Below, in pieces: positions 4,177 through 55,250 of a DNA stretch of 64,000 bases. The notes beneath the pieces were generated by a model. That model saw only the letters and a program-made list of their open reading frames with translations. It was not told where the DNA came from and ran no database searches. The stretch is from a virus: positions 4,643-68,642 of IMG/VR virus record IMGVR_UViG_2846363972_000001; one strand, given 5' to 3'. Each line of letters begins with the position of its first letter. Within the stretch, counting starts at the first letter, position 1. The position numbers were made by a program, and so were the translations under genes.

Positions 4177-5369
4177 GATATTTTAATTTGATAAATTGAG
4201 GCTGTCGGGTATTCATCCACGCCGATTTCAAGCATGTCTGCCCATTTTTTACCGTCCTTACTCACCCGCAGGGACACTATACTTAAATGAGGAATGGCAG
4301 CAGCAACCGGACAGATAAATTTAGAAGCAATAACCGGCTGTCCGATTGCAGCCTTTGCGGGTCCGGTTGTAAAACCGGTAATAATGGCCGCTTTTACAGC
4401 CTCGCTATCCTGATATGACAGCAAATCAGGATCATCAACCATCACCTGAAAAAAAACCGGCACAAAAGCCGGTCGTAAAAATTTTACGGTGTATGTCGGC
4501 GGTCTGACGGGGAAATTTTCTGTATCCGCTATCACGCATTCTGTATTGCCATTAAAAGAACAGCCCGAACCGGCTTTATTCAAAATGGTACGGGCAATGG
4601 TTTCATCATCTCCGCCTACTACGGAAACCAGAATACTGTTACGGATAACCGGATAATTGGTGGCACCAACCTGTATAGTCTCATCTGTCGGGTTGTCGAT
4701 AACATACACATCTTTCACATCGGCTAAATCAGCCACTGCGCCATAAGTTGAGGCATTGGTATTTTTGCTGTTAATCGCTACCGATGCCCGCCGGCGTTTT
4801 TCAAAATCCAGACGACTTTCTTCTTCAATACCAGCAACGGCAGCATATGGGTTAGTTACCCGATCTAAGCCAATAATTGCTTTAGGAATGCCGGTAATCG
4901 TATCGGGCACGGCATTGATATTCCCGGCAGATACGCACTGCGCATGCGCGCTTACTTTACCGTCTTGAGTAATGGTTGCTTCGTTAGTTAACTGCCATTT
5001 ATTGCCGTTATCGTCGTTAAATACCGTACTGGCAGGAATAGTTACCCCGGCCAGCCCATTTAGCATCAGCATCACACTGGAATGCGTAGCCTGTTTGCGG
5101 GTCATAAAATAGATATAGCCTAACCCGTCCTGCCAGATACCCTGCGCATAACGCGGGTCGAACTGATTTAACAGGGTTATCATCTGATTGCGCTCATCGG
5201 TAATAATGGCTGCCAGAGAAGTTACTAACTGCCCTTGCGGTGTATTCATGGCTGTATTCAAGTCCTGTCCGAAAGCATTTCTGAACAGCTCCCATAAGCC
5301 ACTAATTATCTCATCTACAGACGGTGCAATAATCCCCTTATCAGTCACCTGTAATTGCGGAATGCTCAT
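4173..5369 (-). CDS. Baseplate J-like wedge protein
   Basis: TPQGQL, FDPRYAQGIWQD, EESRLDFEKRRR motifs. Confidence 0.88.
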   Translation of the reverse strand: MSIPQLQVTDKGIIAPSVDEIISGLWELFRNAFGQDLNTAMNTPQGQLVTSLAAIITDERNQMITLLNQFDPRYAQGIWQDGLGYIYFMTRKQATHSSVMLMLNGLAGVTIPASTVFNDDNGNKWQLTNEATITQDGKVSAHAQCVSAGNINAVPDTITGIPKAIIGLDRVTNPYAAVAGIEEESRLDFEKRRRASVAINSKNTNASTYGAVADLADVKDVYVIDNPTDETIQVGATNYPVIRNSILVSVVGGDDETIARTILNKAGSGCSFNGNTECVIADTENFPVRPPTYTVKFLRPAFVPVFFQVMVDDPDLLSYQDSEAVKAAIITGFTTGPAKAAIGQPVIASKFICPVAAAIPHLSIVSLRVSKDGKKWADMLEIGVDEYPTASIYQIKIS

Positions 5370-7186: not shown

Positions 7187-7454
7187 CGGTATATACCAAA
7201 AAAAACCGGCTATTTAAGCCGGTGTAAGTCGGGTTATCGCTGCCATGGGTATCTATAAATACAAGATTTTTGGTTATCGGCGTTCCGTTGAGACAGACGC
7301 GGTTTTGTACCTGTACGCCGTCTTTGTCGTTTTCTACGCTGGCAAAAAGCTGTCCCAGCCGTGTAAACAATCGGATATGCCAGCGACTGCCGTTAATCAC
7401 AAAAGAAATATTCTGATTAGGATTAGCATCCAGCGGTATGGTTACTGTTGTCAT
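7176..7454 (-). CDS. Small baseplate/tail protein
   Basis: Position; IPL..NPNQ, G...R..LVY pattern. Confidence 0.6.
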   Translation of the reverse strand: MTTVTIPLDANPNQNISFVINGSRWHIRLFTRLGQLFASVENDKDGVQVQNRVCLNGTPITKNLVFIDTHGSDNPTYTGLNSRFFLVYTDET

Positions 7455-8077
7455 TTAAACCACCCTTTAATAGCGTTTACTGCCTGAGATAACAAAGATT
7501 CCCCGGGTTTTTCGGGCTGTTTTTCTCCGCCGTCGCTTTCTTTTGCATCATCAGGATTTTTTACCTCTTCGGTATCGTATTTCACTACCACTTCGCGCAC
7601 TTCTTCTAGATGGAGATTTACTTTAATCAGTTGTGCACCGTCTGACGCTTCACGCGCAGTGTCGTAACCAACAATACAGGCGTTGGTATAAACATATTCA
7701 GGCGTAATGATGTAAAACAGCAATGTACTGGCTGCCAGTGTTTCAATCTGTCCGAGAAACACGCCGCGCATTAAGGTGCCTCCTGAGCCTTTGGTAAGCT
7801 GTACGGTGGCTTTATACGGATTAGCGACTTTGTTGTAACAGGCGAATGAGCCTTTTTCAACCGGTGCCTGTGCTATTTTGGCGGAATTACTGTATTTGAG
7901 AGAGGTGACGTTATCAGCCAGCAGAATAGGTATTCCGTACTCGTTAAACACGCCCCAGTAATTACCGAAAACGGCATTTATCAATGCCGCACCGCCCAGA
8001 CTGATCAGGGCATTAGTACCGGCAACATTCAAGCCTTTAAAGTTTGGTATGTTAGGAATACCTTCAATTGGCAGCAT
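7451..8077 (-). CDS. Tail/baseplate protein (tube initiator-like)
   Basis: APVEKGSFACYNKV motif; position downstream of TMP island. Confidence 0.6.
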   Translation of the reverse strand: MLPIEGIPNIPNFKGLNVAGTNALISLGGAALINAVFGNYWGVFNEYGIPILLADNVTSLKYSNSAKIAQAPVEKGSFACYNKVANPYKATVQLTKGSGGTLMRGVFLGQIETLAASTLLFYIITPEYVYTNACIVGYDTAREASDGAQLIKVNLHLEEVREVVVKYDTEEVKNPDDAKESDGGEKQPEKPGESLLSQAVNAIKGWFK

Positions 8078-9737: not shown

Positions 9738-9861
9738 ATTCTAACCTCCGAGCCTTATTATTAAGCTTTACTGTAATTATATATTAAATTAACTAAGATT
9801 TCAGCTTATTGTAAAATCCATTTTTCAATATTGGAAACAAGCACATGGCTGGCTTGTTTTG

Positions 9862-10146
9862 TTAGATGGATAATGCTGTATTCAGTGGAACTACATCAGC
9901 ATGTGATTTCTGGCTAGCTTTCCATAAATCATAATTTACCTGCATATTGAGCCAGAATTGCGGGCTGGTATTCAATAAGATGGATAACCTTACTGCCATA
10001 TCCGCACTAATTCCGGTTTTCCCGTTAATGATTCTAGAAAGAGCCGCCCGCGTCACTCCTAAATGTTTAGCGGCTGTACTAATGCTGGTATCACCTAAAT
10101 ATTCTTTTAAAACTTCACCTGCATGGCAAGGGTTGTGCATACTCAT
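9862..10146 (-). CDS. higA: HigA antitoxin
   Basis: MHNPCHAGEVL, GISADMAVRL, FWLNMQ..YDL. Confidence 0.92.
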   Translation of the reverse strand: MSMHNPCHAGEVLKEYLGDTSISTAAKHLGVTRAALSRIINGKTGISADMAVRLSILLNTSPQFWLNMQVNYDLWKASQKSHADVVPLNTALSI

Positions 10147-10158
10147 ACGCTTAACCTC

Positions 10159-10437
10159 CTAATGATAATCTTGGTAATCTACTATTTCAGCGTCATTTCC
10201 ATTAAATTTAAAAGTTAAACGCCAATTACCGTTTACAGTAACCGCCCAATGTCCCTGCAAATTACCTTTTAACTGGTGCAATTTCCAACTAGGCGCATTC
10301 ATATCTTGAGGCTGTGCAGCAGCATCCAGAGCAGTTAATAAAACCCTTAACTTGGTGCTATGTGCAGCCTGAATGCCTGCTTTGCTTCCTGTACGATAAA
10401 ATTGCTCAAGTCCTTTGTGGTTAAAACTTTTTATCAT
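10159..10437 (-). CDS. higB: HigB toxin (start corrected to MIKSFNHKGL)
   Basis: MIKSF.HKGL, LHQLKGNLQGHWAVTVNGNWRLTF, DYQDYH. Confidence 0.92.
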   Translation of the reverse strand: MIKSFNHKGLEQFYRTGSKAGIQAAHSTKLRVLLTALDAAAQPQDMNAPSWKLHQLKGNLQGHWAVTVNGNWRLTFKFNGNDAEIVDYQDYH

Positions 10438-10533
10438 AGCTGCCTCTATAGTGTATAGCATAAATATACACAAAGCCCAGATATTTTGCTATAAATAAAA
10501 CCACTCCGTAGAGTGGTTTTATTGTGATTACAA

Positions 10534-11315
10534 TCAAATAATAATTTTAGCATGCAGCTCTTCAATCGGGCGATCTAACCTTGAGCTGTCGCATTCTCCA
10601 TATATTACCCTCATGCGTTTTGCCAGCTCCATCAGATACTCTGCCTGCTGCTTTGTCTGTATCAGCAGTTTTTTAAACACATCAGCCTTGATACAGTTAT
10701 AACCGTTGATATTCTCTGCATATGTAACTCTGTTATTTTTGACAATTACCAGCCAGCGTCCGTCTGTATTGATAGTGCGCAAAACATTGTTTTCTACAAC
10801 AGCAGATTTAAACATATCAGGCGCATTCGGTATGCTTTCCAAGTATTTCAGTGCAGCGGTGTAATGTTCAACCGGCATGGCTCTGTAACTGTCGATGTTC
10901 AGATAGGTATGCAAACCAGCATATATTTTCTGATACGGCTCGCCTGTTCGCTGGCTGCGCTCTTCTACTGCGCGTTGTATTGTGTCTGCCTGTTCTTTAT
11001 TGATTAGGTGGCTGATGGCTTTATGCTGTATTCCTATAAATCGCTCACGCTCACATTGAATAAAATATTTTCATACCTGACGACCTACCTCAGTTTTTTC
11101 TACCATCGCCAGTTCTTTAGCCATGTCTAAAATTAGATGGTATTCAATTTTGTTTTGTCCACCTCGTTTAGAATTCTTCCTATTAGATGAATTACTTAGA
11201 TCGCTCACCAAATTTGGCAAGCGAATAAAATCTACACCTTCAACGAATCCGTACTCTTCAATTCTTCCTTTAATCCAATTTGATAAGTTCCGAACAACAG
11301 TGTAATCACATGTAT
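10534..11315 (-). pseudogene. AntA/AntB-type antirepressor, 5' truncated, internal TGA at 11071-11073
   Basis: NWIKGRIEEYGF.EGVDF, ILDMAKELAMVE, GRQV*KYFIQCER; in frame with 10534-10914. Confidence 0.85.
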
Positions 11316-11836
11316 TACAACAGATCACATTTAAGTGCTAGATGTTGTGTAAAGAAATTTCCCCATTTGTATATATCAGCAATTTTACAATCACCATCTT
11401 TTTGACATCTTACCAAATAAGTAACAGTACCTTCTACATCCGTCTTTTTGGTTGCACCTACTGTTACTTGAACCATGTTTTCACTTGGCTCAGAAAACGT
11501 TAATTTAGCAGAAGGATCTAGATATAGACCCATCCATATAAATAGATAATAAAAATAATTACAATCTCTGCGTAGTCCGAGCGGTGTCTCATCTAAGCTC
11601 TTTTCTTTGGTATATATAGAATATAGTCTTTTTATATTATCATCCAGATATTTTGAAAAAAAGGAGTAATGATCTTTAATAGTTCTATAATCTGATTTGT
11701 TATCTTTTGTTTCGTCTGCTTTTAATTTAGATATATTTGAATCATACATCCCCTTTATAAATTGTAATTGTGGACTTTCCGCATATGCACATGCACTAAT
11801 AAACAAACCTAATAAGACAAAAAGAATTTTTTTCAT
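11315..11836 (-). CDS. Periplasmic DUF3828-like protein, paralogue 3 (most divergent)
   Basis: Signal peptide ending AYA-ESP; CQKDGDCKI motif shared with 11919 and 13949. Confidence 0.7.
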   Translation of the reverse strand: MKKILFVLLGLFISACAYAESPQLQFIKGMYDSNISKLKADETKDNKSDYRTIKDHYSFFSKYLDDNIKRLYSIYTKEKSLDETPLGLRRDCNYFYYLFIWMGLYLDPSAKLTFSEPSENMVQVTVGATKKTDVEGTVTYLVRCQKDGDCKIADIYKWGNFFTQHLALKCDLL

Positions 11837-11880
11837 TTTTTCTTTCTGATAAAAAATTTCAAAATATTTATTTAGCTAAG

Positions 11881-11919
11881 TTATGTTATTGAAACTCCAA
11901 ACTGGTTAAATAAATAGTT
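11881..11919 (-). repeat. Degenerate copy of TMP 3' end (NYLFNQFGVSIT*)
   Basis: Compare TMP terminus NYMFNQLGVSMT*; the following 44-bp spacer nearly matches 14477-14520. Confidence 0.85.
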
Positions 11920-12416
11920 TATTTATTTCGATGTTTTTTGATTTCGGTGCGATAAAAATCATCAAGACATTTAGACATTTTTTTGGTAAAAGGTTTTCCC
12001 CTTTCAAATATTTCGGTAATTTTGCAATCCCCGTCTTTTTGACATTTAACCTGATAAGTAACTGAACGCTGCTTCAAGTCTTTGGTTGCACCTATTGTTA
12101 CTTTAACCCTACCTGTGCTTGGTTCGGTAAATGTTAGCTTGGCCTTTGGATTTAACTCATTCACCTGCCATAAAACATCATAATCAATACAAGCTATACC
12201 CTCAGTTGCCTCTCCGTATTCATCATTTCTATCGTATAATTTTCTGATGTTGCTATCAAAATATTTTACATAGGAATCATAATCATAATTTGTTTCTCTG
12301 GTCTCAAGCTTTACGCTTTCTTTGTACATTCTTTTTATGTACTGCACTTGAGGGCTTTCAGCAAAAACGTCTGAACTGATACATAATCCCAAAACAGCAA
12401 GTAATAGTTTTTTCAT
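11919..12416 (-). CDS. Periplasmic DUF3828-like protein, paralogue 2
   Basis: Signal peptide ending VFA-ESP; ACIDYDVLWQ; last 17 aa identical to paralogue 1. Confidence 0.72.
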   Translation of the reverse strand: MKKLLLAVLGLCISSDVFAESPQVQYIKRMYKESVKLETRETNYDYDSYVKYFDSNIRKLYDRNDEYGEATEGIACIDYDVLWQVNELNPKAKLTFTEPSTGRVKVTIGATKDLKQRSVTYQVKCQKDGDCKITEIFERGKPFTKKMSKCLDDFYRTEIKKHRNK

Positions 12417-12518
12417 ATAACAGAACTTTCAAGTTAATTAAATATATAATTGTTTATTTTCTAAATCGCACGCTGTCGATTGTGTACAGCATGGCTGTTG
12501 AAACAATTAATTTCTTAA

Positions 12519-12640
12519 TCATGTCATCAATACTCTAAACTGATTAAAAATATAGTTTTGTGTTTCTTTCATCGCGACCATAGTATTCAAACTAACAGTA
12601 TTTGATAAATATTTAACATTTATGCTTTTATATTAACCAC
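12519..12640 (-). repeat. Degenerate copy of the last ~40 codons of the TMP
   Basis: VVNIKSINVKYLSNTVSLNTMVAMKETQNYIFNQFRVLMT* vs VNVNIPNMNVNTSSNTVSGNTVAAIKETQNYMFNQLGVSMT*. Confidence 0.9.
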
Positions 12641-12644
12641 AACA

Positions 12645-12683
12645 TTGCAACGTTCTTTTCCGAACACTTTGGCTACAAATTCA
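12645..12683 (-). pseudogene. Rha N-terminal remnant
   Basis: SEFVAKVFGKERCNVV matches SEFVAKAFGKKHCNVL in 53836-54576. Confidence 0.65.
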
Positions 12684-12803
12684 CTATTTGATAGCACTGA
12701 TAATCTCAGGCAATCTCCATGCAATTATAATCATCAGAATAATTAACGCAGCCGTCCACATGGTTTTACGTAATTCTTTGGGTGTGAAATTAATAGCTTC
12801 CAT
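12684..12803 (-). CDS. 39-aa single-TM peptide, copy 1
   Basis: MEAINFTPKELRKTMWTAALIILMIIIAWRLPEIISAIK; RBS AAGGAG; second copy at 55049-55168. Confidence 0.7.
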   Translation of the reverse strand: MEAINFTPKELRKTMWTAALIILMIIIAWRLPEIISAIK

Positions 12804-12867
12804 ATGCACTCCTTGAATTAAAAAAATCACTCCGAAAAGTGGTTTTGATTGCGTAACAGAATCAAGA

Positions 12868-13809
12868 TTAAAGTTTATATCCCTCAAGCTCTTTGGTTTT
12901 GGCTTTTATCAGCTTTATTCTACAGTTAAACCGGTTAATTTCTGTCTGCACCTCCGTATCAGCCGGCTTTTCTGAATTGCATTCATTATCCGCACTCTTA
13001 GTCCAACTTTTAAGGTTTGAGCTTAACTGATCTCTAATTGATTCTGGTATAGCATCCCATGTTGTTTCTAGTGTTTTTATTGAATCATCTGCTTCTTGCT
13101 TTAATTTCTGTAGCTTTGCTTCTTTTACGTTGGCATAAACTTGATCCTGCTGTGCTTGAAGTTCTGAAATACGGCTACGCGTCAATTCAGTCTCACAGTT
13201 TAAATATGCTATTTGGTTTTCTTCAGGTGAGGAGTACGCATTAGATTGACACTGTTTTTTCTTATCACGATTCCAAATGACTTGTTGAGATTTTAAATAA
13301 TTTCGTACATCTACATCCATATTCTTCCATAAAGTATTTATTTCGTTATTCACTGCCGTATTTTCAAGTTTTGCACTTTGTAATAAAGCTTGAATATCTT
13401 CCTGAGATGTATTTTGATTATCTGTATTAGCAACTGTCTGCGTGTTATTTGATACTGGAGTATTTTCAGTCGTTTTTTTGTTACTTGAGCATGTTTCTAA
13501 CAATACACCAACCACCACAAAAAAACCAATCGTTGCCAAGATGCTTTTTAAACAGCCGCCATTTTTGGCTACAGCAGTCGCGCTAGATGATGCAGCCGCA
13601 GATGCACTTTGATTAATGATAATCTGCGGCTTTGTCTCAGTTGGCTTTGTTTGAGCTGGATCACCATACCCATTATTATAGGTAGATGTATTACGGGCTT
13701 GGTTTAGTAATAAAGCTTTGTGTTCTTCATACTCTTCCTGAGTTATTGCCCCTTTTTCCAGTAATTCATACAAGCGTGTAAGTTCATTTGTTAATGATGG
13801 TTTAGACAT
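12868..13809 (-). CDS. SHOCT + TM + two LprI (DUF1311)-like repeats
   Basis: ELTRLYELLEKGAITQEEYEEHKALLL (SHOCT); QQVIW..DKKKQC...C...LTRSRISEL pattern occurs twice. Confidence 0.7.
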   Translation of the reverse strand: MSKPSLTNELTRLYELLEKGAITQEEYEEHKALLLNQARNTSTYNNGYGDPAQTKPTETKPQIIINQSASAAASSSATAVAKNGGCLKSILATIGFFVVVGVLLETCSSNKKTTENTPVSNNTQTVANTDNQNTSQEDIQALLQSAKLENTAVNNEINTLWKNMDVDVRNYLKSQQVIWNRDKKKQCQSNAYSSPEENQIAYLNCETELTRSRISELQAQQDQVYANVKEAKLQKLKQEADDSIKTLETTWDAIPESIRDQLSSNLKSWTKSADNECNSEKPADTEVQTEINRFNCRIKLIKAKTKELEGYKL

Positions 13810-13919
13810 AAAAAATCCTTATGCAGTATCAAAGTTTTTATCTAAGTTACTACAAACAAATCAAGATGAACAAAACCTCAAACATGCTATACCGGATAAA
13901 ACAGATTTCTTCATGTTCT

Positions 13920-13949
13920 TCAAATTCCAAGCTGGTTAATCATATAGTT
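13920..13949 (-). repeat. Degenerate copy of TMP 3' end (NYMINQLGI*)
   Basis: Abuts the stop of paralogue 1, as 11881-11919 abuts the stop of paralogue 2. Confidence 0.75.
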
Positions 13950-14476
13950 TATTTATTTCGATGCTTTTTGATTTCAGTGCGATAAAAATCATCAAGACAC
14001 TTAGACATTTCTTTAGTAAAAGGTTTTCCCCATTCAAATATTTCAGTAATTTTGCAATCCCCGTCTTTTTGACATTTAACCTGATAAGTAACAGAACGCT
14101 GCTCCATGCCTCTGGTTGCACCTATTGTTACTTTAACTCTACCTTCACTTGGCTCAGAAAACGTTAATTTAGCAAAAGGATTCATGTCTTGCCCTTGCCA
14201 TAAAACATTATGATCCAGACAGGCTATGTCTCCGCTTATTTCCTGATATTCATTATTTCTTGCATATAGTTTTTTTATATTCTCATCGAGATATTCTAAA
14301 AAAAAAGATTCATCAACATCTTGATAAATATTTAAAGCACTATCTTTTGTTATACCTCCTTTTAATAGAGATGCATTTAAATCATACATCCCCTTTATGT
14401 ACTGTACTTGAGGGCTTTCCGCATTTGCACATGCGCCAATAAATAAACCTAATAAGACAAAAAGTATTTTTTTCAT
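13949..14476 (-). CDS. Periplasmic DUF3828-like protein, paralogue 1 (44 bp after TMP stop)
   Basis: Signal peptide ending ANA-ESP; ACLDHNVLWQGQD; VTYQVKCQKDGDCKITEI. Confidence 0.75.
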   Translation of the reverse strand: MKKILFVLLGLFIGACANAESPQVQYIKGMYDLNASLLKGGITKDSALNIYQDVDESFFLEYLDENIKKLYARNNEYQEISGDIACLDHNVLWQGQDMNPFAKLTFSEPSEGRVKVTIGATRGMEQRSVTYQVKCQKDGDCKITEIFEWGKPFTKEMSKCLDDFYRTEIKKHRNK

Positions 14477-14520
14477 TTTTTTCTTTCTGATAAAAATTTC
14501 AAAATATTTATTTAACTAAG

Positions 14521-17196
14521 TTATGTCATCGATACCCCAAGTTGATTAAACATATAGTTTTGTGTTTCTTTTATCGCCGCAACAGTATTTCCACTAACAG
14601 TATTTGATGAAGTGTTAACATTCATATTTGGTATATTAACATTAACATATTTTCTATTGTCTGTATGTGTTGCTGTATTACTTCCAGCTAACTGATTGCT
14701 TTGGCTAACTCTTTTTGATATTCGATTTGCGTTATACGCCATTTCCATATTAGCGGTCTGTTTAAAAAAAGCATCCCGTCTGTCATGCCCGCTCTTGTAT
14801 TTTGGGTCATCCTGTCGCCAGATAATATAATTACCTCCTAATATTTTGTGTCCTTTATCGTATGCGACATTCGGATTATCCAAAAATTCTTTTTTGGTTT
14901 TGGAGTACGCAGGGTTATTGGATATTTCAGACAGCATATACTTAACCATTTCATCAAGCGAAGCTTTTGATCTGGTTATTTTTCCGTTTTTATATAAACC
15001 CTTTGCTGTTAATTCCGCAATCAGCTTTTTAGCCCGAATTCCCTGCCAAGAAATAAGTCCAACATTTGTTGCACCATTTTTCGGGTCTGTATGCGAACCA
15101 AAAAGAAAATCCGGATTAAATGAATTTTCCCGACCAATCTCAGCAGTCATTATTCTTGCTTGCTGTGCGGATAAACCGTGTTCACGAAGAGATGCATAGA
15201 TTTGCTGAGCATAATTCATATTTCCTTTTACAGGTACACTGGTTGCCGTTTTCTTCTGGTTTGGTGTTTCTGATGATTTCATACGCGCGATGGTGGGAAC
15301 TGATACACCATTTACGATATTTTTATATGAAACATCATTGGTTGCAGCAGTATTGCCTCTGGTATTTTTTTGAACAAAGTCTGATACCCAATATCGACCA
15401 TTCCAGATGGCTACATGCCCAGCTTTGGCGTTCTGTCCAAATCCAGCTGGGATAGACATAACATCTCCAATTTGTGGAACATAATCCTTACTATAGGGAA
15501 TACTCTGGAACTTGCCAGTAGCAATCAAATTCTTCGCCACATCTTTACCATGTCCCCACGCTTTAATTCCTTGCTTCCTGAAGGATTCGTTTACATAGTA
15601 CGCACATTCGCTGTTACTTTTAGGCAATGCATGTTTTGTTGCGTAATCCGCTGCTTTCACTGCTGTATCCGCAGGCGTACTGTTAGAAGCGCCGTTAGAA
15701 GCACCTTTCTTTCCAATCACAATGGGCTTGGTTGGTGGTGTATAAGAGCCGTTTACTTCTTCATACGTTTTGCCTCCGTGAAATAAACGGTACGCGCTTT
15801 CACCGATGAAGCCCGCTACATCTTCTTTCTTTTCACCCATTGCATCAGCAATTATGCCTGTTGCAATATCAGAATAATTGTCAATCATCTGTTTGGCTTG
15901 CTTAGCCGCACCGGTAAAATCGCCGCGCACCAGTTTACCTAGAATTTCAGCATAACCTTTCAGGGTAGGAATGGTGTTATTTTTTACGGCATCAACCAGA
16001 TTACCAAATGCAGCGCACAAAGTATCAACGGACATTTTGCTGTCTTTAATACCGGCACTGAATGAACTCCAGTCAAACAGAGATTTACCGCCCTTAGCCC
16101 AAGTGTCGTAATCGTCGTACAGGAGTACAAAAGCACCTGCCAGAGCAGTTACCGCAGCAATAACCGGATTAATCGCGATTCCAAGGGCCCCCATAAGGCG
16201 GATTAACGGCGTAAACGGAGCAATAAACGCCAGCAGTGCACGTCCGGCACTAAGTAAGGTAGGAATCAGCAGCATACCGATTACAATAGCTGCGGTCTGG
16301 AATACCGCCTTAACAACCTTTTCATGCCGTTGCAGAAACTCAAAGAAGCTGTTTACTACCTTAATCAGAGTAAGCAGTATCGGCGTTAATGCATCACCCA
16401 CCAACTGCTTCATGCTTTGCCAGTGTGCGCTCAATATCGCCTGCTGTTTGGTCAATTCGCGACTGCGGACAATGGCTTCCCCGTCTGAGTGATACATTCT
16501 TTTCTGAATATCCAGAATTTCCTGTAACTCTTTGCGACCAGAAATTAAGGCGTTGATTGTGCCGTCATCAAAGCCCATTTTTTTACCGATTGTATAAGCC
16601 TGTTCCTTTGGCATTTTCTGGAATGAATCAGCCAGATCAAGCATTACATCATCCAGCTTGCGAACCTTACCGGCATCATCAACAACACTGACGCCCAAGG
16701 CATTGAAATAAGGCAGCATGCTGGTGTCACCAAACATTACCAGCCCGTTCATAGCCTGTTCAATGCCGGTTAAAGAGGCTGTCATACCCTGCGCACTGCC
16801 ACCGAAAGCACCTGCCGCATTCTGCCAGTCTGTAATACTCGCGGTGGCCATACCTAGCTGACCGGAAAGCTTTGACACTTCCATATTGGCATGCGCAGCA
16901 TCATTAGCCAGTTTAAACAGCCCTGTTGAGCCGATGATTAAAGCAAAAAATCCGGTTAGCTCCTTAGTTACTTTTGCAATGGCCTGACCGAATTTTGCTG
17001 TCTGTTCGATAGAGGAATGATATTTCTTGGCTAGTTCCTCGTTAGCCTTTCCGGCCTGCTTTGAGGCTTTTTCGGTTTTATCCAGAGACTTTTCGAGTGC
17101 CTGATTTTTCTTTTCTGCCTTAACTGCCTGCGCAGCAAATTTAGACGTATCAAGCATCAGCTCGACAAGTATTTGTTCAACTATATTCGTTGTCAT
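14521..17196 (-). CDS. Tape measure protein with C-terminal CHAP/NlpC-like amidase and tail-lysozyme domains
   Basis: Helical N-terminus; ECAYYV..GDV..GHVAIWNG..WVSDFVQ (~15330-15680); GLSAQQARIMTAEIGRENSFNP..GLISWQG (~14770-15220). Confidence 0.88.
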   Translation of the reverse strand: MTTNIVEQILVELMLDTSKFAAQAVKAEKKNQALEKSLDKTEKASKQAGKANEELAKKYHSSIEQTAKFGQAIAKVTKELTGFFALIIGSTGLFKLANDAAHANMEVSKLSGQLGMATASITDWQNAAGAFGGSAQGMTASLTGIEQAMNGLVMFGDTSMLPYFNALGVSVVDDAGKVRKLDDVMLDLADSFQKMPKEQAYTIGKKMGFDDGTINALISGRKELQEILDIQKRMYHSDGEAIVRSRELTKQQAILSAHWQSMKQLVGDALTPILLTLIKVVNSFFEFLQRHEKVVKAVFQTAAIVIGMLLIPTLLSAGRALLAFIAPFTPLIRLMGALGIAINPVIAAVTALAGAFVLLYDDYDTWAKGGKSLFDWSSFSAGIKDSKMSVDTLCAAFGNLVDAVKNNTIPTLKGYAEILGKLVRGDFTGAAKQAKQMIDNYSDIATGIIADAMGEKKEDVAGFIGESAYRLFHGGKTYEEVNGSYTPPTKPIVIGKKGASNGASNSTPADTAVKAADYATKHALPKSNSECAYYVNESFRKQGIKAWGHGKDVAKNLIATGKFQSIPYSKDYVPQIGDVMSIPAGFGQNAKAGHVAIWNGRYWVSDFVQKNTRGNTAATNDVSYKNIVNGVSVPTIARMKSSETPNQKKTATSVPVKGNMNYAQQIYASLREHGLSAQQARIMTAEIGRENSFNPDFLFGSHTDPKNGATNVGLISWQGIRAKKLIAELTAKGLYKNGKITRSKASLDEMVKYMLSEISNNPAYSKTKKEFLDNPNVAYDKGHKILGGNYIIWRQDDPKYKSGHDRRDAFFKQTANMEMAYNANRISKRVSQSNQLAGSNTATHTDNRKYVNVNIPNMNVNTSSNTVSGNTVAAIKETQNYMFNQLGVSMT

Positions 17197-17377
17197 ACTT
17201 ATTCACCAACATTTTGTTATGTTCAGAAACCTGATAAACCTCAAGAATATTCAGCACATCCTCAAGCCCCAGCACACTATCAAGCTCAACGTAAGAAGCC
17301 AGTCCGGCTGTAATAACCTGACTGGCTAAAGAAGAGACATTCACTGTTTGTGCAAGTACACCTTCACGGAAAGGCAA
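17177..17377 (-). CDS. Tail assembly chaperone extension (gpT-like)
   Basis: In the -1 frame of the upstream TAC at T TTT TTA (17416-17422). Confidence 0.7.
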   Translation of the reverse strand: MPFREGVLAQTVNVSSLASQVITAGLASYVELDSVLGLEDVLNILEVYQVSEHNKMLVNKYDNEYS

Positions 17378-17385
17378 TCCCGCCG

Positions 17386-17793
17386 TTAGTTCATATCTGG
17401 GGGATTGCCGTTCGTTAAAAAATCGATATGCACCAGTAAAGCCTCTTTGCGTAATTCAAACAGTGTTTTTAAATCCTCAATATCACTTTCTACATTCAGA
17501 CTGCGCGCCAGTCCGCCAGAGGGCACTATCTGCACGCAGGTAAGCAGTTCATCCAGCAATTCACCGCCTATCTGCGGGTCTATCTTGCTGATAACACTAA
17601 TGGCGAGTTTTGCCATTTCCAGCATGCCGCCGTTAGGATTGATACCCGCTGTATCAATGCCGCTTCCGGCAAGGGCAAACAGAGCGCGTTGTGCCCATTT
17701 ATCCGCCTGTATAATCGGCATTTCGGTGATCAGAAAGGTTTTACCTTTATCGCGACCGGTATCTATGTTGATTGTTTTTGTTTTACGTGCCAT
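17386..17793 (-). CDS. Tail assembly chaperone (gpG-like)
   Basis: Between tube and TMP; GRDKGKTFLITEM motif. Confidence 0.8.
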   Translation of the reverse strand: MARKTKTINIDTGRDKGKTFLITEMPIIQADKWAQRALFALAGSGIDTAGINPNGGMLEMAKLAISVISKIDPQIGGELLDELLTCVQIVPSGGLARSLNVESDIEDLKTLFELRKEALLVHIDFLTNGNPPDMN

Positions 17794-18242
17794 CAGTTAG
17801 TCTCCTCTGCGCCATTCAGAACCAATCTGAATGTGTACTGGCTGCCTGCCAGTAATTTCTGACCGGAAGCTCCGCCGGTTAATTTAACCAGAGCACCAGT
17901 AGCACTGTAGCGTTTTTTTACAGACGGAATTTCAACCACAATATCAATCGGGCGTGTTTCCATGTTGGCATTAAAATCCTTGCGGATATTCTCCATGTGC
18001 TCGATTGACGGGCTGTTTGCTTCTAGATGCAGCGTCCATTCCACTTCGTGCGGCGTATAGCCTATTGACTGTTTACCATCTACACCCATGCGAGTTTCTG
18101 CGATATTGGCATCACCAAAGCCCCAGGTGTTATCCGCCTGAAAGCCTTGCATCGTAATATAGTTGTCGTATACACCTGCGCAGCGCAACATAAGTACGGA
18201 ATTGGCTGATGTAATCGTTAGCGGGTTATGTCCCATTGGCAT
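17793..18242 (-). CDS. Tail tube protein
   Basis: After sheath; ITSANSVL, MGVDGK, LEANSPS motifs. Confidence 0.8.
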   Translation of the reverse strand: MPMGHNPLTITSANSVLMLRCAGVYDNYITMQGFQADNTWGFGDANIAETRMGVDGKQSIGYTPHEVEWTLHLEANSPSIEHMENIRKDFNANMETRPIDIVVEIPSVKKRYSATGALVKLTGGASGQKLLAGSQYTFRLVLNGAEETN

Positions 18243-18245
18243 GAT

Positions 18246-18773
18246 TTAATCTCCTAAAACTTCAAAATTGTTTAATAAGGGCTGTAACTGCTGTATATAA
18301 GACGTTATTTTTGCCTGGTTAATTGGCTTTTCAGTTTGTCGTTTGCGTAGAATTTTGCCGGCTAGGCTCGCTGTGGCAAATGACTGTTTTTCTGCTTCTA
18401 GCGCAGCCAGCAATTTAGTCATTATTGATGTATTTAGATTATTGAGCATGGACTGCATGCGATTAAATTCTTTGATATATGCCACTTTAATCTGCATAGC
18501 CTGATCAGTGTTGTAGCCCATCACCAGCAACATAAAGCCGTCTTTGGTCATGCGATAGCTGCGCACATTTCTCCAACAAGCCCCAATTTTCTTTTTTTCC
18601 TCGTAAGCCCAAAAATGGGCGCACGCAAATTCAGGGACTTTATCCATGATTGCATCAATATCACGCAATACGTGCTTATGCTGTTTGCTAAAAACTTTAG
18701 CCACTGCCTGACTATCAGTTAGAAGAACATCATTTTGAGCAAATATTAAATTTTTAGGTAATTGAATCTGCAT
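18246..18773 (-). CDS. Rha-family regulator
   Basis: TDSQAVAKVFSKQHKHVLRDI, MTKDGFMLLVMGY, KVAYIKEFNRM. Confidence 0.88.
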   Translation of the reverse strand: MQIQLPKNLIFAQNDVLLTDSQAVAKVFSKQHKHVLRDIDAIMDKVPEFACAHFWAYEEKKKIGACWRNVRSYRMTKDGFMLLVMGYNTDQAMQIKVAYIKEFNRMQSMLNNLNTSIMTKLLAALEAEKQSFATASLAGKILRKRQTEKPINQAKITSYIQQLQPLLNNFEVLGD

Positions 18774-18866
18774 TGTTATCTTCCTAAAATGAATAAACAA
18801 AAACCCGTACATTTTGTACGGGTTTTTAGGGTGGTTTTAGGGTTGTTCCCTTATTTGATTTCAGTG

Positions 18867-20333
18867 TTATTGCACCGCGATAGAAGCCAGATTCACAGTA
18901 TGAACACTGCCGCCGTCTGCATACCAGAGCTTTAACGGCAATGATTCGCGCTGACCGCGTACTTGTGCTGAAGCTTGATTTATCAGCAGGCAGTAACCGG
19001 TTGTTTCAATCTGCCGGGCCGCGTCAAAACCGGCCTCATAATTAATCTGCGATTTCTGTGCTTCGGAAAGGTTTACTCCGCGCTGGATACCGCCAAAATT
19101 CAGCATTTCATTAATCGGGTCTTGTGCGGCTGCGCGGTGAATGGCAATACCCTCAGCGTTATACGGGATAGCTTTATAGCTGATAAGCATATTCATAAAC
19201 GCCAGTTGCAGCTGAGCGTTGAAATACACCTGATTCAGGTAAGTATCTACCCAGGCAAAATCGCCGCTTACTCTGGTATTTCTGAAAAAGATAAACCGCT
19301 CATTAGCTGTTGCCCACGCGCCATAATAGGCGTAGCCGTTGCTTTCCAGTGCCGTGGCATCTTTAAGGGCGGTGACAGAGGCGGCGATACCACTTTGCCG
19401 CTTGAATTCCATAGTCGAGCGACCGTTTCTTTCACTAAAGTTGATGGAGGCGGCATAACCGCAAGCCAGCCCTGCCTGTTCGAGTGTGCCGTAAATCGCT
19501 GTTGTTCCGGATATGGCATTTTCTTTCAGCCATGAAGCAAAGCAGTTGGTGTTATTGGCAATCAGGGCGGTTGGCTCCTGCGCATAATAAACAAACCAGT
19601 AACGGCTGTTCTGTTTGCTGTTCCACTTAGCCAGTGCTTTCAGAACATCCTGAGTAAATGCATCGCCGATGGTAGTAATAACAGCATAATTCAGGGTATA
19701 GCCTGATACACGCTCCATTACAGAATCCGGACTGTCTGCCTTAGTGGCATTATCAGCAATCGCCCCGGTATTTTCAGTTAAGCAGAGGGCTTCTGCTGCT
19801 GTTCCGCTGGCAAAGGAAATAGCCGAACCTGCACCGGCAGACGGCGAGCTGATAATAAATGCCTGTAACTGCGTATCAAAGACAACATCGTTAGTTAAAG
19901 CCTCTTTGATTTTTACCGCAGCATCACTAAAGCTTTTGGCTTTGCTCAAATCGATTGTTGCAGTGATTACCGTGCCGTCTATGGTTAGGGTTAGATCCCC
20001 TTTGATGGCTTGCAGTTCATTCAACTGCAATGATTTGACACTGGCACCAATCAGCCGTGCACTAATATCTGTCTGATTGTAACGGACGATAAACAGGGTT
20101 GCGGGCTTGATGGTTGAACCGACATAACCATCAAAATAACACTGGGCAAACTGATACTGTTCACTGTTATAACCGTATACAGTGCCTACATCGGCGGCAC
20201 TGGCATACTGATTTATCGGATACACACTGTTGTCTGACAGTACAACGGTATTTAAGTCTAGTGCATCACCGCCTGTACCGATTACCGCCGGATTGACGGT
20301 AACAATATTACTTGCAGGAATTGAAGGTAACAT
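18867..20333 (-). CDS. Tail sheath protein (DUF3383-like)
   Basis: SIPASNIVTVNPAV, FKRQSGI, WVDTYLNQ, KLWYADGGSV motifs. Confidence 0.88.
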   Translation of the reverse strand: MLPSIPASNIVTVNPAVIGTGGDALDLNTVVLSDNSVYPINQYASAADVGTVYGYNSEQYQFAQCYFDGYVGSTIKPATLFIVRYNQTDISARLIGASVKSLQLNELQAIKGDLTLTIDGTVITATIDLSKAKSFSDAAVKIKEALTNDVVFDTQLQAFIISSPSAGAGSAISFASGTAAEALCLTENTGAIADNATKADSPDSVMERVSGYTLNYAVITTIGDAFTQDVLKALAKWNSKQNSRYWFVYYAQEPTALIANNTNCFASWLKENAISGTTAIYGTLEQAGLACGYAASINFSERNGRSTMEFKRQSGIAASVTALKDATALESNGYAYYGAWATANERFIFFRNTRVSGDFAWVDTYLNQVYFNAQLQLAFMNMLISYKAIPYNAEGIAIHRAAAQDPINEMLNFGGIQRGVNLSEAQKSQINYEAGFDAARQIETTGYCLLINQASAQVRGQRESLPLKLWYADGGSVHTVNLASIAVQ

Positions 20334-55048: not shown

Positions 55049-55168
55049 TTATCTAATTGCGCTGATAATTTCAGGTAATCTCCATGCAATTATAATCATC
55101 AGAATAATTAACGTAGCCGTCCACATGGTTTTGCGCAATTCTTTGGGCGTGAAATTGATAGCTTCCAT
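55049..55168 (-). CDS. 39-aa single-TM peptide, copy 2 (not in ORF track)
   Basis: MEAINFTPKELRKTMWTATLIILMIIIAWRLPEIISAIR; 37/39 identical to copy 1. Confidence 0.7.
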   Translation of the reverse strand: MEAINFTPKELRKTMWTATLIILMIIIAWRLPEIISAIR

Positions 55169-55250
55169 ATGCACTCCTTGAATAAAAAAACCACTCCGAA
55201 GAGTGGTTTGCAATTAATAAATTTAAATAACTGGTTTTAAGATTAAATTA

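Follow-up and report, generated by a model that had tools for sequence, protein, structure and literature searches.

P2-type hotspots are prophage cargo and defence hotspots that lie between conserved structural genes. HK97 gp15 is an example of a phage moron (PMC3594210). In T4, Spackle inhibits the gp5 tail lysozyme of a superinfecting phage (PMC7677548). Tae3 of Ralstonia pickettii (PDB 4hz9 chain A; catalytic dyad C23/H81) is a type VI secretion system (T6SS) amidase effector (PMC11796386), and Tai3, the periplasmic immunity protein of Tae3, is the best-studied DUF3828 protein. A QDX loop motif is said to take part in the inhibition of Tae3 (bioRxiv 10.1101/2025.03.19.644130). Both DUF3828/Tai3 and DUF1311/LprI are listed as T6SS immunity domains (PMC12135965). 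Here we compare with these systems an array of small genes that follows the gene for the tail tape measure protein (TMP) in 64,000 nucleotides (nt) of viral DNA (IMG/VR record IMGVR_UViG_2846363972_000001, positions 4,643 to 68,642; this whole stretch is called the window), in which pieces of the TMP 3′ end recur between the genes. A first-pass annotation of this DNA knew of no such description for tape measure genes, and in our literature searches, too, neither orphan tape-measure ends nor TMP-linked immunity or inhibitor arrays turned up in any paper.

The TMP gene of the window ends in a conserved stretch of about 150 nt, here called the tail, and three orphan pieces of it lie downstream among the cargo genes (Table 1). 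The comparison of the array region with itself that the first-pass annotation had proposed returned three pairs of direct repeats with 80-86% identity. The first pair (12514-12623 and 14516-14625) is 80% identical over 110 nt. The second (11701-11920 and 14341-14560; 82% over 220 nt) comprises the TMP end, a 44-bp spacer and the 5′ part of a paralogous gene, and the third (11883-12182 and 13913-14212; 86% over 300 nt) comprises the 3′ end of a paralogue and a remnant. When the TMP 3′ end and spacer were aligned locally to each remnant, with 1000 shuffles each, none of the shuffles scored as high as remnant 1 (score 34, z = 5.7), remnant 2 (score 125, z = 38) or remnant 3 with its spacer (score 112, z = 27.6). 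The weakest case, remnant 1, has independent support in an 80-nt match of 80% to the intact TMP end and the start of the F18 gene in the related locus L001 (F-numbers denote cassette families, and L-numbers related loci compared with the window). Orphan 2 is 77-85% identical to the TMP ends of 12 loci and is orthologous to orphans in L011, L013 and L143-L151. No further copies of the TMP end were found elsewhere within the 64-kb window. Remnants 1 and 2 extend past the position of the TMP stop codon into short open frames, which are relics of F18 and F03 genes. We conclude that each remnant is a genuine leftover of an earlier junction between TMP and cargo. By the direct repeats and the shuffles, the three degenerate termini of the first-pass annotation are real, with coordinates that agree within a few bases, and the second spacer copy that it listed is borne out by the sequence. 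It had also placed a TMP end ahead of every DUF3828-like gene and of the LprI-like gene; the ends are present, but remnants 1 and 2 directly head the F18 and F03 relics and not the LprI-like gene and paralogue C.

The loci collected for comparison were 13 viral contigs with a related TMP, one Snodgrassella genome locus and about 50 contigs encoding array proteins. Those examined were 33 loci with an intact TMP (at least 500 amino acids, aa) and about 30 shorter or TMP-less contigs, and the genomes of these relatives are non-independent. An identity profile over 11 relatives showed that the TMP is a mosaic, with residues 1-487 conserved, a swappable C-terminal domain (C-domain) at residues of about 490-840, and a conserved end of about 45 aa that corresponds to the tail. 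The C-domains fall into at least five classes, unrelated or distant, which carry different peptidoglycan hydrolase domains. In the window TMP, an amidase domain matches Tae3 (phmmer against 4hz9_A, E = 1.4e-7), with Cys531 and His594 aligned on the catalytic dyad of Tae3, and a Phage_lysozyme2-like domain (PF18013) follows with E = 3.4e-6, just short of the cut-off that the same domain exceeds in L004. Other classes contain a glucosaminidase (L007, L010 and L159), a GH19 domain (L013) or a weak SLT match (L008). The TMP 3′ end is 91-97% identical in nucleotides among relatives of the close lineage, even across differing C-domains. The idea that this conservation is unusual was dropped, as the TMP N-terminal body is conserved to about the same degree in the same pairs. 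In some relatives the TMP gene is broken and the array is intact: L003 (8001-10547) has a premature stop about 190 nt short of the TMP end, and L013 (8001-10171) has the TMP split in two frames. In L163 (632-970), only a 112-aa TMP-like open reading frame (ORF) stands between the chaperone gene and F00, most of the TMP apparently having been deleted.

On sequence comparison, the window array is a stack of four modules, each of which abuts an intact TMP in some relative. Module 1 consists of the TMP, the spacer and the F00 paralogue A, an arrangement also found in L003 and L005. Module 2 contains a 40-nt tail piece (tail40), the F18 relic, the LprI-like gene and a gene for a small transmembrane (TM) protein, and corresponds to the TMP-F18-LprI order of L001 and L164-L173 minus about 335 nt of F18. 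Intact F18, a 128-aa exported protein, is encoded directly after the TMP in L001; window positions 13959-13880 match the TMP end and F18 start of that locus, and 13877-12845 match it at 88%. Members of the small TM protein family were also found in L003, L010, L013 and L143-L163. A 93%-identical copy (residues 22-67 of a 67-aa ORF) is present at 55052-55189, in the second prophage of the window. Module 3 contains a tail piece of about 130 nt, the F03 relic and paralogue C, and its counterpart is the TMP-F03-F00 order of L004, L014 and L153-L158. In L011 this module is an orphan that still has an intact F03. F03 is likewise intact in L004, L010 and L159, and stands directly after the TMP in L004, L010 and others. 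Module 4 consists of tail40, the spacer, paralogue D, AntA, HigB and HigA; window positions 11920-9858 are 95.8% identical over 2064 nt to 10610-12673 of L006, where the order is TMP-spacer-D-AntA-HigBA. Overall, the modules show 88-96% nucleotide identity to the TMP-adjacent module of another relative and 74-81% to their neighbours in the window, which excludes simple local duplication.

Relatives carry from none to three or more orphan ends per array, and orthologous remnants occupy the same junctions in dozens of contigs. L159, from a complete Snodgrassella alvi genome, has the order TMP-F05-tail54-F11-F00-tail40-F03-F05′-..., with all genes intact, and L011 has the order TMP-F11-F05-tail35-...-AntA-tail128-F03-F00-tail. 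At junctions where BLAST found no tail, inspection revealed an 18-20-nt relic ending in ATGACATGA ahead of the next cassette gene, as between F11 and F05 in L011 and between F05 and F11 in L009. Every cassette gene retains at least 18-20 nt of the TMP end, with a Shine-Dalgarno (SD)-like GG run and the ATGACATGA start. At least six junction classes were distinguished across the relatives. The F00 stop codon is joined to tail position of about 110, the F05 stop to about 97, F03 to about 75-100 (L010), a small TM gene or AntA to about 22, an ORF on the integrase side to about 4, and the stop codon of F11 or F05 to roughly the final 20 nt. The junction of F00 stop and tail is found in many loci with four continuations (F11, F03, the F18 relic or spacer-D). 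In the tail relic behind F00, the proximal half is constant and the distal half changes together with the gene that follows, a pattern that crossovers within the tail would be expected to leave. The module of F18 relic and LprI-like gene follows F03 in L010 and F00 in the window, L005 and L153, with differing extents of the tail. The order of cassettes can also be reciprocal, as in TMP(C2)-F05-F11 of L009 and TMP(C1)-F11-F05 of L011 (C0 to C3 are classes of the TMP C-domain). Arrays with orphan ends and no TMP were found in L133-L142, next to an integrase fragment, yceG and tmk, and in L143-L152, next to argS and a bactofilin gene. The latter are headed by a Terminase_2-LprI fusion ORF and have the order of window modules 2-4. 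These TMP-less arrays appear to be leftovers that were kept when prophages decayed.

Comparison with the relatives shows that cassettes were stacked at the TMP tail. That recombination took place there repeatedly, with older cassettes kept, is well supported and general in this phage family. The 5′ edge of each cassette is the end of the TMP gene, and related phages would recombine by way of the homology in the last 150 nt or so of that gene. A new cassette would be placed beside the TMP by a crossover of the TMP end in one genome with the tail copy behind a cassette in another, and the same join might alternatively arise by illegitimate recombination inside the tail. The older module, still headed by a piece of the TMP end, would be displaced downstream. 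Since the conserved end is flanked by a variable enzyme domain on one side and variable cargo on the other, it is the sole homology between them and the probable site of exchange. In most relatives the TMP stop codon and the start of the following gene overlap (ATGA), and an SD-like GGGG or GGAG run lies about 10 nt upstream, both within the last 20-40 nt of the TMP gene. A cassette gene that moves would therefore need at least 20-40 nt of the TMP end for its translation. The relic before the dead F18 gene has no GGGG or GGAG run, whereas the relics before intact genes retain the GG run. As an orphan contains only the conserved end downstream of the enzymatic domain, recombination in the tail would swap or stack cargo and uncouple the TMP domain from it. 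We searched for a structured recombination site of the attC type and rejected it, because the TMP end and spacer fold no better than shuffles (z = 0.50) and contain only short AT-rich inverted repeats.

The products of all first cassette genes are small proteins with signal peptides, and all F00 copies have an N-terminal signal or lipoprotein-like leader. Paralogues A, C and D are 43-63% identical in amino acids. A profile search with F00 in a library of 1.8 billion proteins found 45 proteins, among which P0127 (E = 1.9e-9) and P0137 (E = 7.6e-7) pass the gathering score of PF12883 (DUF3828), and a PF12883 match was found in 6 of 33 distant F00 relatives. An embedding search with F00 placed DUF3828 clusters at 0.92. 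By this transitive homology, A, C and D appear to be divergent, remote members of the DUF3828/Tai3 family of lipoproteins. Their earlier label as DUF3828-like holds through the F00 profile and not through the Pfam model itself, which has no match to the three proteins. The LprI-like label is confirmed by Pfam matches to LprI (PF07007; 26.3 bits with a cut-off of 22, residues 132-217) and to SHOCT (28.8 bits with a cut-off of 27). The F00 loop after an invariant Trp (residues of about 93-98 in A, window 14185-14202) is hypervariable among about 110 clusters of the family (WQGQDL 41, WQGNDL 28, WQINEL 14, WQSNDL 6, WQTNGL 6 and others), and the C-terminal 60 residues are nearly invariant. Paralogue A has QDM in this loop, where the wider family has WQxQD; C has NEL and D has LYL. 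This variability fits a specificity loop, which may correspond to the QDX loop of Tai3. Searches of PDB sequences with A, F18 and F03 (phmmer) and with the F00 profile gave nothing meaningful. A 271-aa protein of the representative library, P0115, links two cassette families, with an F00-like domain (1-162) fused to an Adhesin_E-like domain (170-268) of the F18 kind. No paper naming DUF4431, the family of F03, was found in the literature search.

The class of the TMP C-domain tracks the first cassette. C1 is followed by F11 in three TMP backgrounds (733, 745 and 891 aa), C2 by F05 in three loci, and C0 by F00, F03-F00 or F18-LprI. We tentatively propose that the exported cassette proteins (F00, LprI/DUF1311, F03, F05, F11 and F18) act as periplasmic inhibitors of the TMP hydrolase domains of incoming related phages, a superinfection exclusion like that by T4 Spackle. 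With stacked cassettes, a lysogen would then exclude a wider range of TMP enzyme types. Rather more doubtful is an entry-step arms race between polymorphic effectors and immunity proteins, in which interchangeable TMP hydrolases required for passage through the wall would be opposed by class-specific periplasmic inhibitors of the resident prophages. The TMP end would serve as recombination anchor, cassette leader and possibly lysogenic promoter region, and lysogens would accumulate immunity-only orphan arrays that outlast prophage decay. In a bolder variant, some prophages may have been domesticated as tailocin-like weapons with the TMP enzyme as toxin. Taken as a whole, the explanation by cassette stacking at the TMP end in a cargo hotspot, together with an inhibitor function of the cargo, seems to us a probable one.

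Assembled RNA contigs of run X11 bear on the expression of the array. A 1525-nt contig with a depth of about 104 takes in the final 116 nt or so of the TMP gene and reaches some 30 nt beyond the stop codon of the LprI-like gene (window 12845-14632). It has the L001-type arrangement and includes a 368-nt stretch, in the F18 slot, that is missing from the window. The depth of contigs from the TMP body is 5-7, and that of the o126/AntA region (10557-11029) is about 41. The data suggest a cargo transcript that is separate from the late operon and has its 5′ end inside the TMP 3′ end. A scan for sigma-70 promoters returned 20 sites, 21.2 being expected, with no enrichment over shuffles, and a consensus scan found no terminator-like sites. 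At 14613-14647, inside the TMP 3′ end, lies an inverted repeat of 15 nt, imperfect (80% complementary) and with a 5-nt loop, which coincides with the end of the RNA contig and is partly retained in orphan 2. It may be a binding site for a regulator.

Several points weigh against the explanation that we prefer. We infer from end products that the exchange was homologous (tail-to-tail and unequal) or illegitimate and not site-specific, and we saw no intermediate of recombination. The RNA data come from a single small run, and neither the start nor the level of a transcript can be proved from contigs. Pfam gave no direct match for A, C or D, PF12883 included, even at E<=5. The AlphaFold2 model of A (34 sequences) had low confidence (pLDDT 57), and a Foldseek search of the PDB with it returned only weak rows for MlaC/Ttg2D (NTF2-like); for these reasons neither was used as evidence of fold. 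Behind C0 TMPs that are nearly identical (97-100% over residues 636-850), the first cassette is one of three different kinds, A, D-type or F18, and F03 is found after TMPs of class C0 and of class C3 alike. The pairing is thus not a strict one, and plain linkage among non-independent genomes could account for the association of classes. Arrays that persist by chromosomal genes without a TMP (L133-L152) fit cargo of any kind that benefits the host.

The same evidence bears on a stricter reading like that of Rhs and contact-dependent inhibition (CDI) loci, which the first-pass annotation had favoured. Each orphan would mark the arrival of a new tip with its cognate immunity gene, and the old immunity gene would be kept so that the lysogen stays immune. 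The polymorphic TMP C-domains with at least five hydrolase classes, the tracking of the first cassette by domain class, the reciprocal order of L009 and L011 with a tail relic of about 20 nt before the displaced gene, and the pairing of Tae3-like and Tai3-like proteins in the window all agree with tip displacement. However, no orphan holds any part of the variable tip. The orphans comprise only the final 20-150 nt, so they are not orphan C-termini in the Rhs/CDI sense, and as the homology lies 3′ of the tip, crossovers in the tail would move cargo alone. The near-identical C0 TMPs ahead of different cassettes argue in the same direction. Moreover, modules 1-4 are all seen next to C0-class TMPs (window, L003 and L005; L001; L004 and L158; L006), so the window stack needs no change of tip. 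We consider strict tip displacement unlikely. What stands of the earlier claim is recombination at the tail with retention of older cassettes, and what is not supported is the view of the orphans as displaced tips.

It is also improbable, in our view, that the cassettes have no relation to the TMP and serve as cargo for lysogenic conversion, such as orphan T6SS immunity genes against rival Snodgrassella or receptor-masking lipoproteins, with the TMP-end pieces as a mere travelling 5′ leader (SD, start and perhaps promoter). DUF3828/Tai3 and DUF1311 are families of T6SS immunity, and YbjP, another DUF3828 lipoprotein, binds the outer-membrane protein TolC. The survival of arrays in decayed prophage remnants without a TMP, the unrelated defence and toxin-antitoxin (TA) genes in the same hotspot, and the loss of the GGGG/GGAG run before the truncated F18 and its retention before intact genes also speak for this account. 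Against this account, the C-domain class tracks the first cassette over several TMP backgrounds, and the window TMP itself bears a Tae3-like enzyme, whose known immunity family is DUF3828.

We regard as highly improbable a tandem duplication in situ of the TMP end with a paralogue, followed by divergence inside this single lineage and with no exchange between phages. The amino acid identities among A, C and D and the identical F00-stop/tail junction behind A and C would agree with it, but remnants 1 and 2 head relics of the non-paralogous genes F18 and F03, and the modules resemble the TMP-adjacent modules of other relatives more than their window neighbours. Chance similarity, which the 33-37% GC content of the region and the shortness of remnant 1 might suggest, is refuted by the shuffles and by the orthologous remnants in dozens of contigs.

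The stacking of cassettes at the TMP end takes place within a wider variable region. The array belongs to a myovirus-type prophage region, in which all array-relevant genes are on the minus strand. Orthologues in related contigs match Pfam families named after the Pseudomonas phage E217 (E217_gp31_N for the sheath, E217_Gp32 and E217_GP41) and Dit_like, and the phage family is that of E217-like temperate myoviruses of Snodgrassella. All homologues of array proteins with a source name come from this genus, and the sole match to a genome contig is L014, from S. communis LMG 28360, which contains no new array type. The interval between the TMP and Dit-like genes is a hypervariable cargo hotspot between conserved core genes. 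Among the 33 loci with a TMP, the number of genes in it ranges from 2 to about 12, with more than 20 families represented. The survey of homologous prophages proposed earlier did find variable array length and swapped TMP C-terminal domains. The Dit-like gene (Pfam Dit_like on orthologues) is 98-99% identical in relatives of the close lineage and 83-84% in more distant ones. The GC content is 0.33-0.38 across 8-16 kb and 0.44-0.48 (about 46%) in the flanking tail and head genes. Cargo of the hotspot in the window or its relatives includes HigBA, BrnT/BrnA (BrnTA), Fic, BstA_C, RDD and DUF4236-SHOCT proteins. The BstA_C-domain protein, of an abortive-infection family, is encoded in L005 (12751-13653), L011 (11833-12663) and L174 (11161-11991), and a 648-aa HATPase_c_3 protein in the hotspot of L158 (11733-13679). 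A second variable slot lies between the sheath and tube genes (window 18246-18812). In the window this slot is occupied by an Rha/antirepressor-like gene, in L153 by Phage_pRha and in L159 by P22_AR_N, and in L158 it is empty. A megablast search of window positions 11200-17300 in a phage collection returned zero matches, and a scan of viral contigs with a degenerate 18-mer of the TMP end gave merely chance matches in unrelated contigs (L015 onward), which were discarded.

Table 1. Positions of the tape-measure gene, the orphan TMP ends, the cargo modules and neighbouring genes in the window.
Feature	Position	Strand	Remarks
Tail tape measure protein (TMP), 891 aa	14521..17196	-	PHROG TMP families
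Tae3-like CHAP amidase domain, TMP residues of about 513-610	15367..15660	-	PDB 4hz9_A match; weak Pfam CHAP match
Phage_lysozyme2-like domain, TMP residues 663-775	14872..15210	-	Pfam PF18013
Conserved TMP 3′ end (tail)	14521..14670	-	Recurs as orphans
44-bp spacer, TMP stop to paralogue A	14477..14520	-	Also in L003, L005, L006
Second copy of the 44-bp spacer	11837..11880	-	96% over 51 nt
Orphan TMP end 1, 40 nt (last 40 nt of TMP)	13911..13950	-	Begins at stop codon of A
Orphan TMP end 2	12498..12650	-	About 130 nt TMP-derived (12519-12650); similarity runs on past the stop position
Orphan TMP end 3, 40 nt	11881..11920	-	Begins at stop codon of C
Module 1 cargo: F00 paralogue A, 175 aa	13949..14476	-	Lipoprotein-type signal peptide; loop WQGQDM
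F18 relic, ATGA-overlap start, 17 codons (MKKSVLSGIAC...)	13861..13914	-	About 335 nt deleted relative to L001
Module 2 cargo: SHOCT, TM and LprI/DUF1311 protein, 313 aa	12868..13809	-	Follows TMP-F18 in L001, L164-L173
Small single-TM protein, 39 aa from ATG with AGGAG SD	12684..12803	-	Module 2
F03 (DUF4431 family) relic	12454..12522	-	First 12 or so and last 10 or so codons joined in frame, middle deleted
Module 3 cargo: F00 paralogue C, 165 aa	11919..12416	-	Loop WQVNEL
Module 4 cargo: F00 paralogue D, 173 aa	11315..11836	-	Loop WMGLYL; directly after intact TMP in L006
Rest of module 4	9858..11328	-	Pfam
AntA-type antirepressor, in two pieces	11071-11328 and 10534-10914	-	Pfam
HigB	10159-10473	-	Pfam
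HigA	9862-10146	-	Pfam
Dit-like baseplate gene	7451..8077	-	Conserved right-hand limit of the variable interval; tail/baseplate genes resume here
Tail assembly chaperone	17386-17793	-	PHROG
Virion structural protein family	17793-18242	-	Adjoins chaperone; Pfam E217_Gp32 on orthologues
Sheath	18867-20333	-	

Whatever the function of the cargo, a gene's conserved end that overlaps with the beginning of its downstream neighbour can serve as a portable adaptor for recombination and expression, which builds arrays without a dedicated recombinase, and the orphan ends offer a concrete, testable mechanism of moron accretion. If the proposed inhibitor function is true, the arrays would be a record, readable in sequence, of superinfection exclusion directed against tail-borne cell-wall enzymes. 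Such exclusion of tail enzymes is so far known essentially from T4 Spackle and gp5, and here it would be polymorphic, with many pairs of enzyme and inhibitor. It would also explain the high variability of the lysin domains at the C-terminus of tape measures and would supply candidates for the inhibition of several classes of hydrolase (amidase, lysozyme, glucosaminidase and GH19). These arrays are relevant to strain-level competition in Snodgrassella, a symbiont of the honey-bee gut.

The proposed mechanism resembles that of T4 Spackle in that a periplasmic protein of the resident phage would block the cell-wall-degrading enzyme of an incoming tail. There is, however, no sequence relationship, and Spackle is encoded by one early gene in a lytic phage, whereas here many enzyme classes and many inhibitor families would be involved in stacked prophage arrays. 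The likeness to Tae3/Tai3 (PDB 4HZ9) lies in the TMP domain, which aligns with Tae3 including the Cys/His dyad, and in F00, which is exported, appears to belong remotely to the Tai3 family and has the QDM loop in A. The LprI-domain protein in the array similarly recalls immunity by DUF1311/LprI lysozyme inhibitors. Unlike Tae3, which a T6SS delivers, this enzyme is a fused domain of a phage tape measure; F00 falls below the Pfam model, and inhibition is proposed from these similarities.

Like integron arrays, the cassettes are small, promoter-less and in one orientation, with a short element recurring between them. They differ in that there is no integron integrase, no integrase of any kind being adjacent to the array within the window, and in that the recurring element is a gene fragment without an attC-like fold. 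Variable content between conserved flanks, a lower GC content than in the neighbouring structural genes, and TA and abortive-infection genes (HigBA, BrnTA, BstA_C and Fic) are shared with morons and prophage hotspots, and transcription may likewise be separate from the late operon. A difference from these is that relics of the core gene that lies upstream stand between the cassettes, each retained as a translation start, and the same relic-flanked units (F00-tail and F05-tail) recur in many combinations.

The analogy with Rhs and CDI loci (rhs-CT/rhsI and cdiA-CT/cdiI) is partial. As in those loci, a conserved body carries a polymorphic C-terminal enzymatic domain with small genes directly downstream, and displaced downstream modules each start with a fragment of the main gene that offers homology for recombination. 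The orphans of Rhs and CDI loci consist of the upstream conserved fragment, a complete alternative tip and an immunity gene, whereas the TMP orphans have no tip and only cargo. The TMP is also a structural protein of the virion and not a secreted toxin, and cognate immunity is here a proposal drawn from the pairing of domain classes and cassettes.

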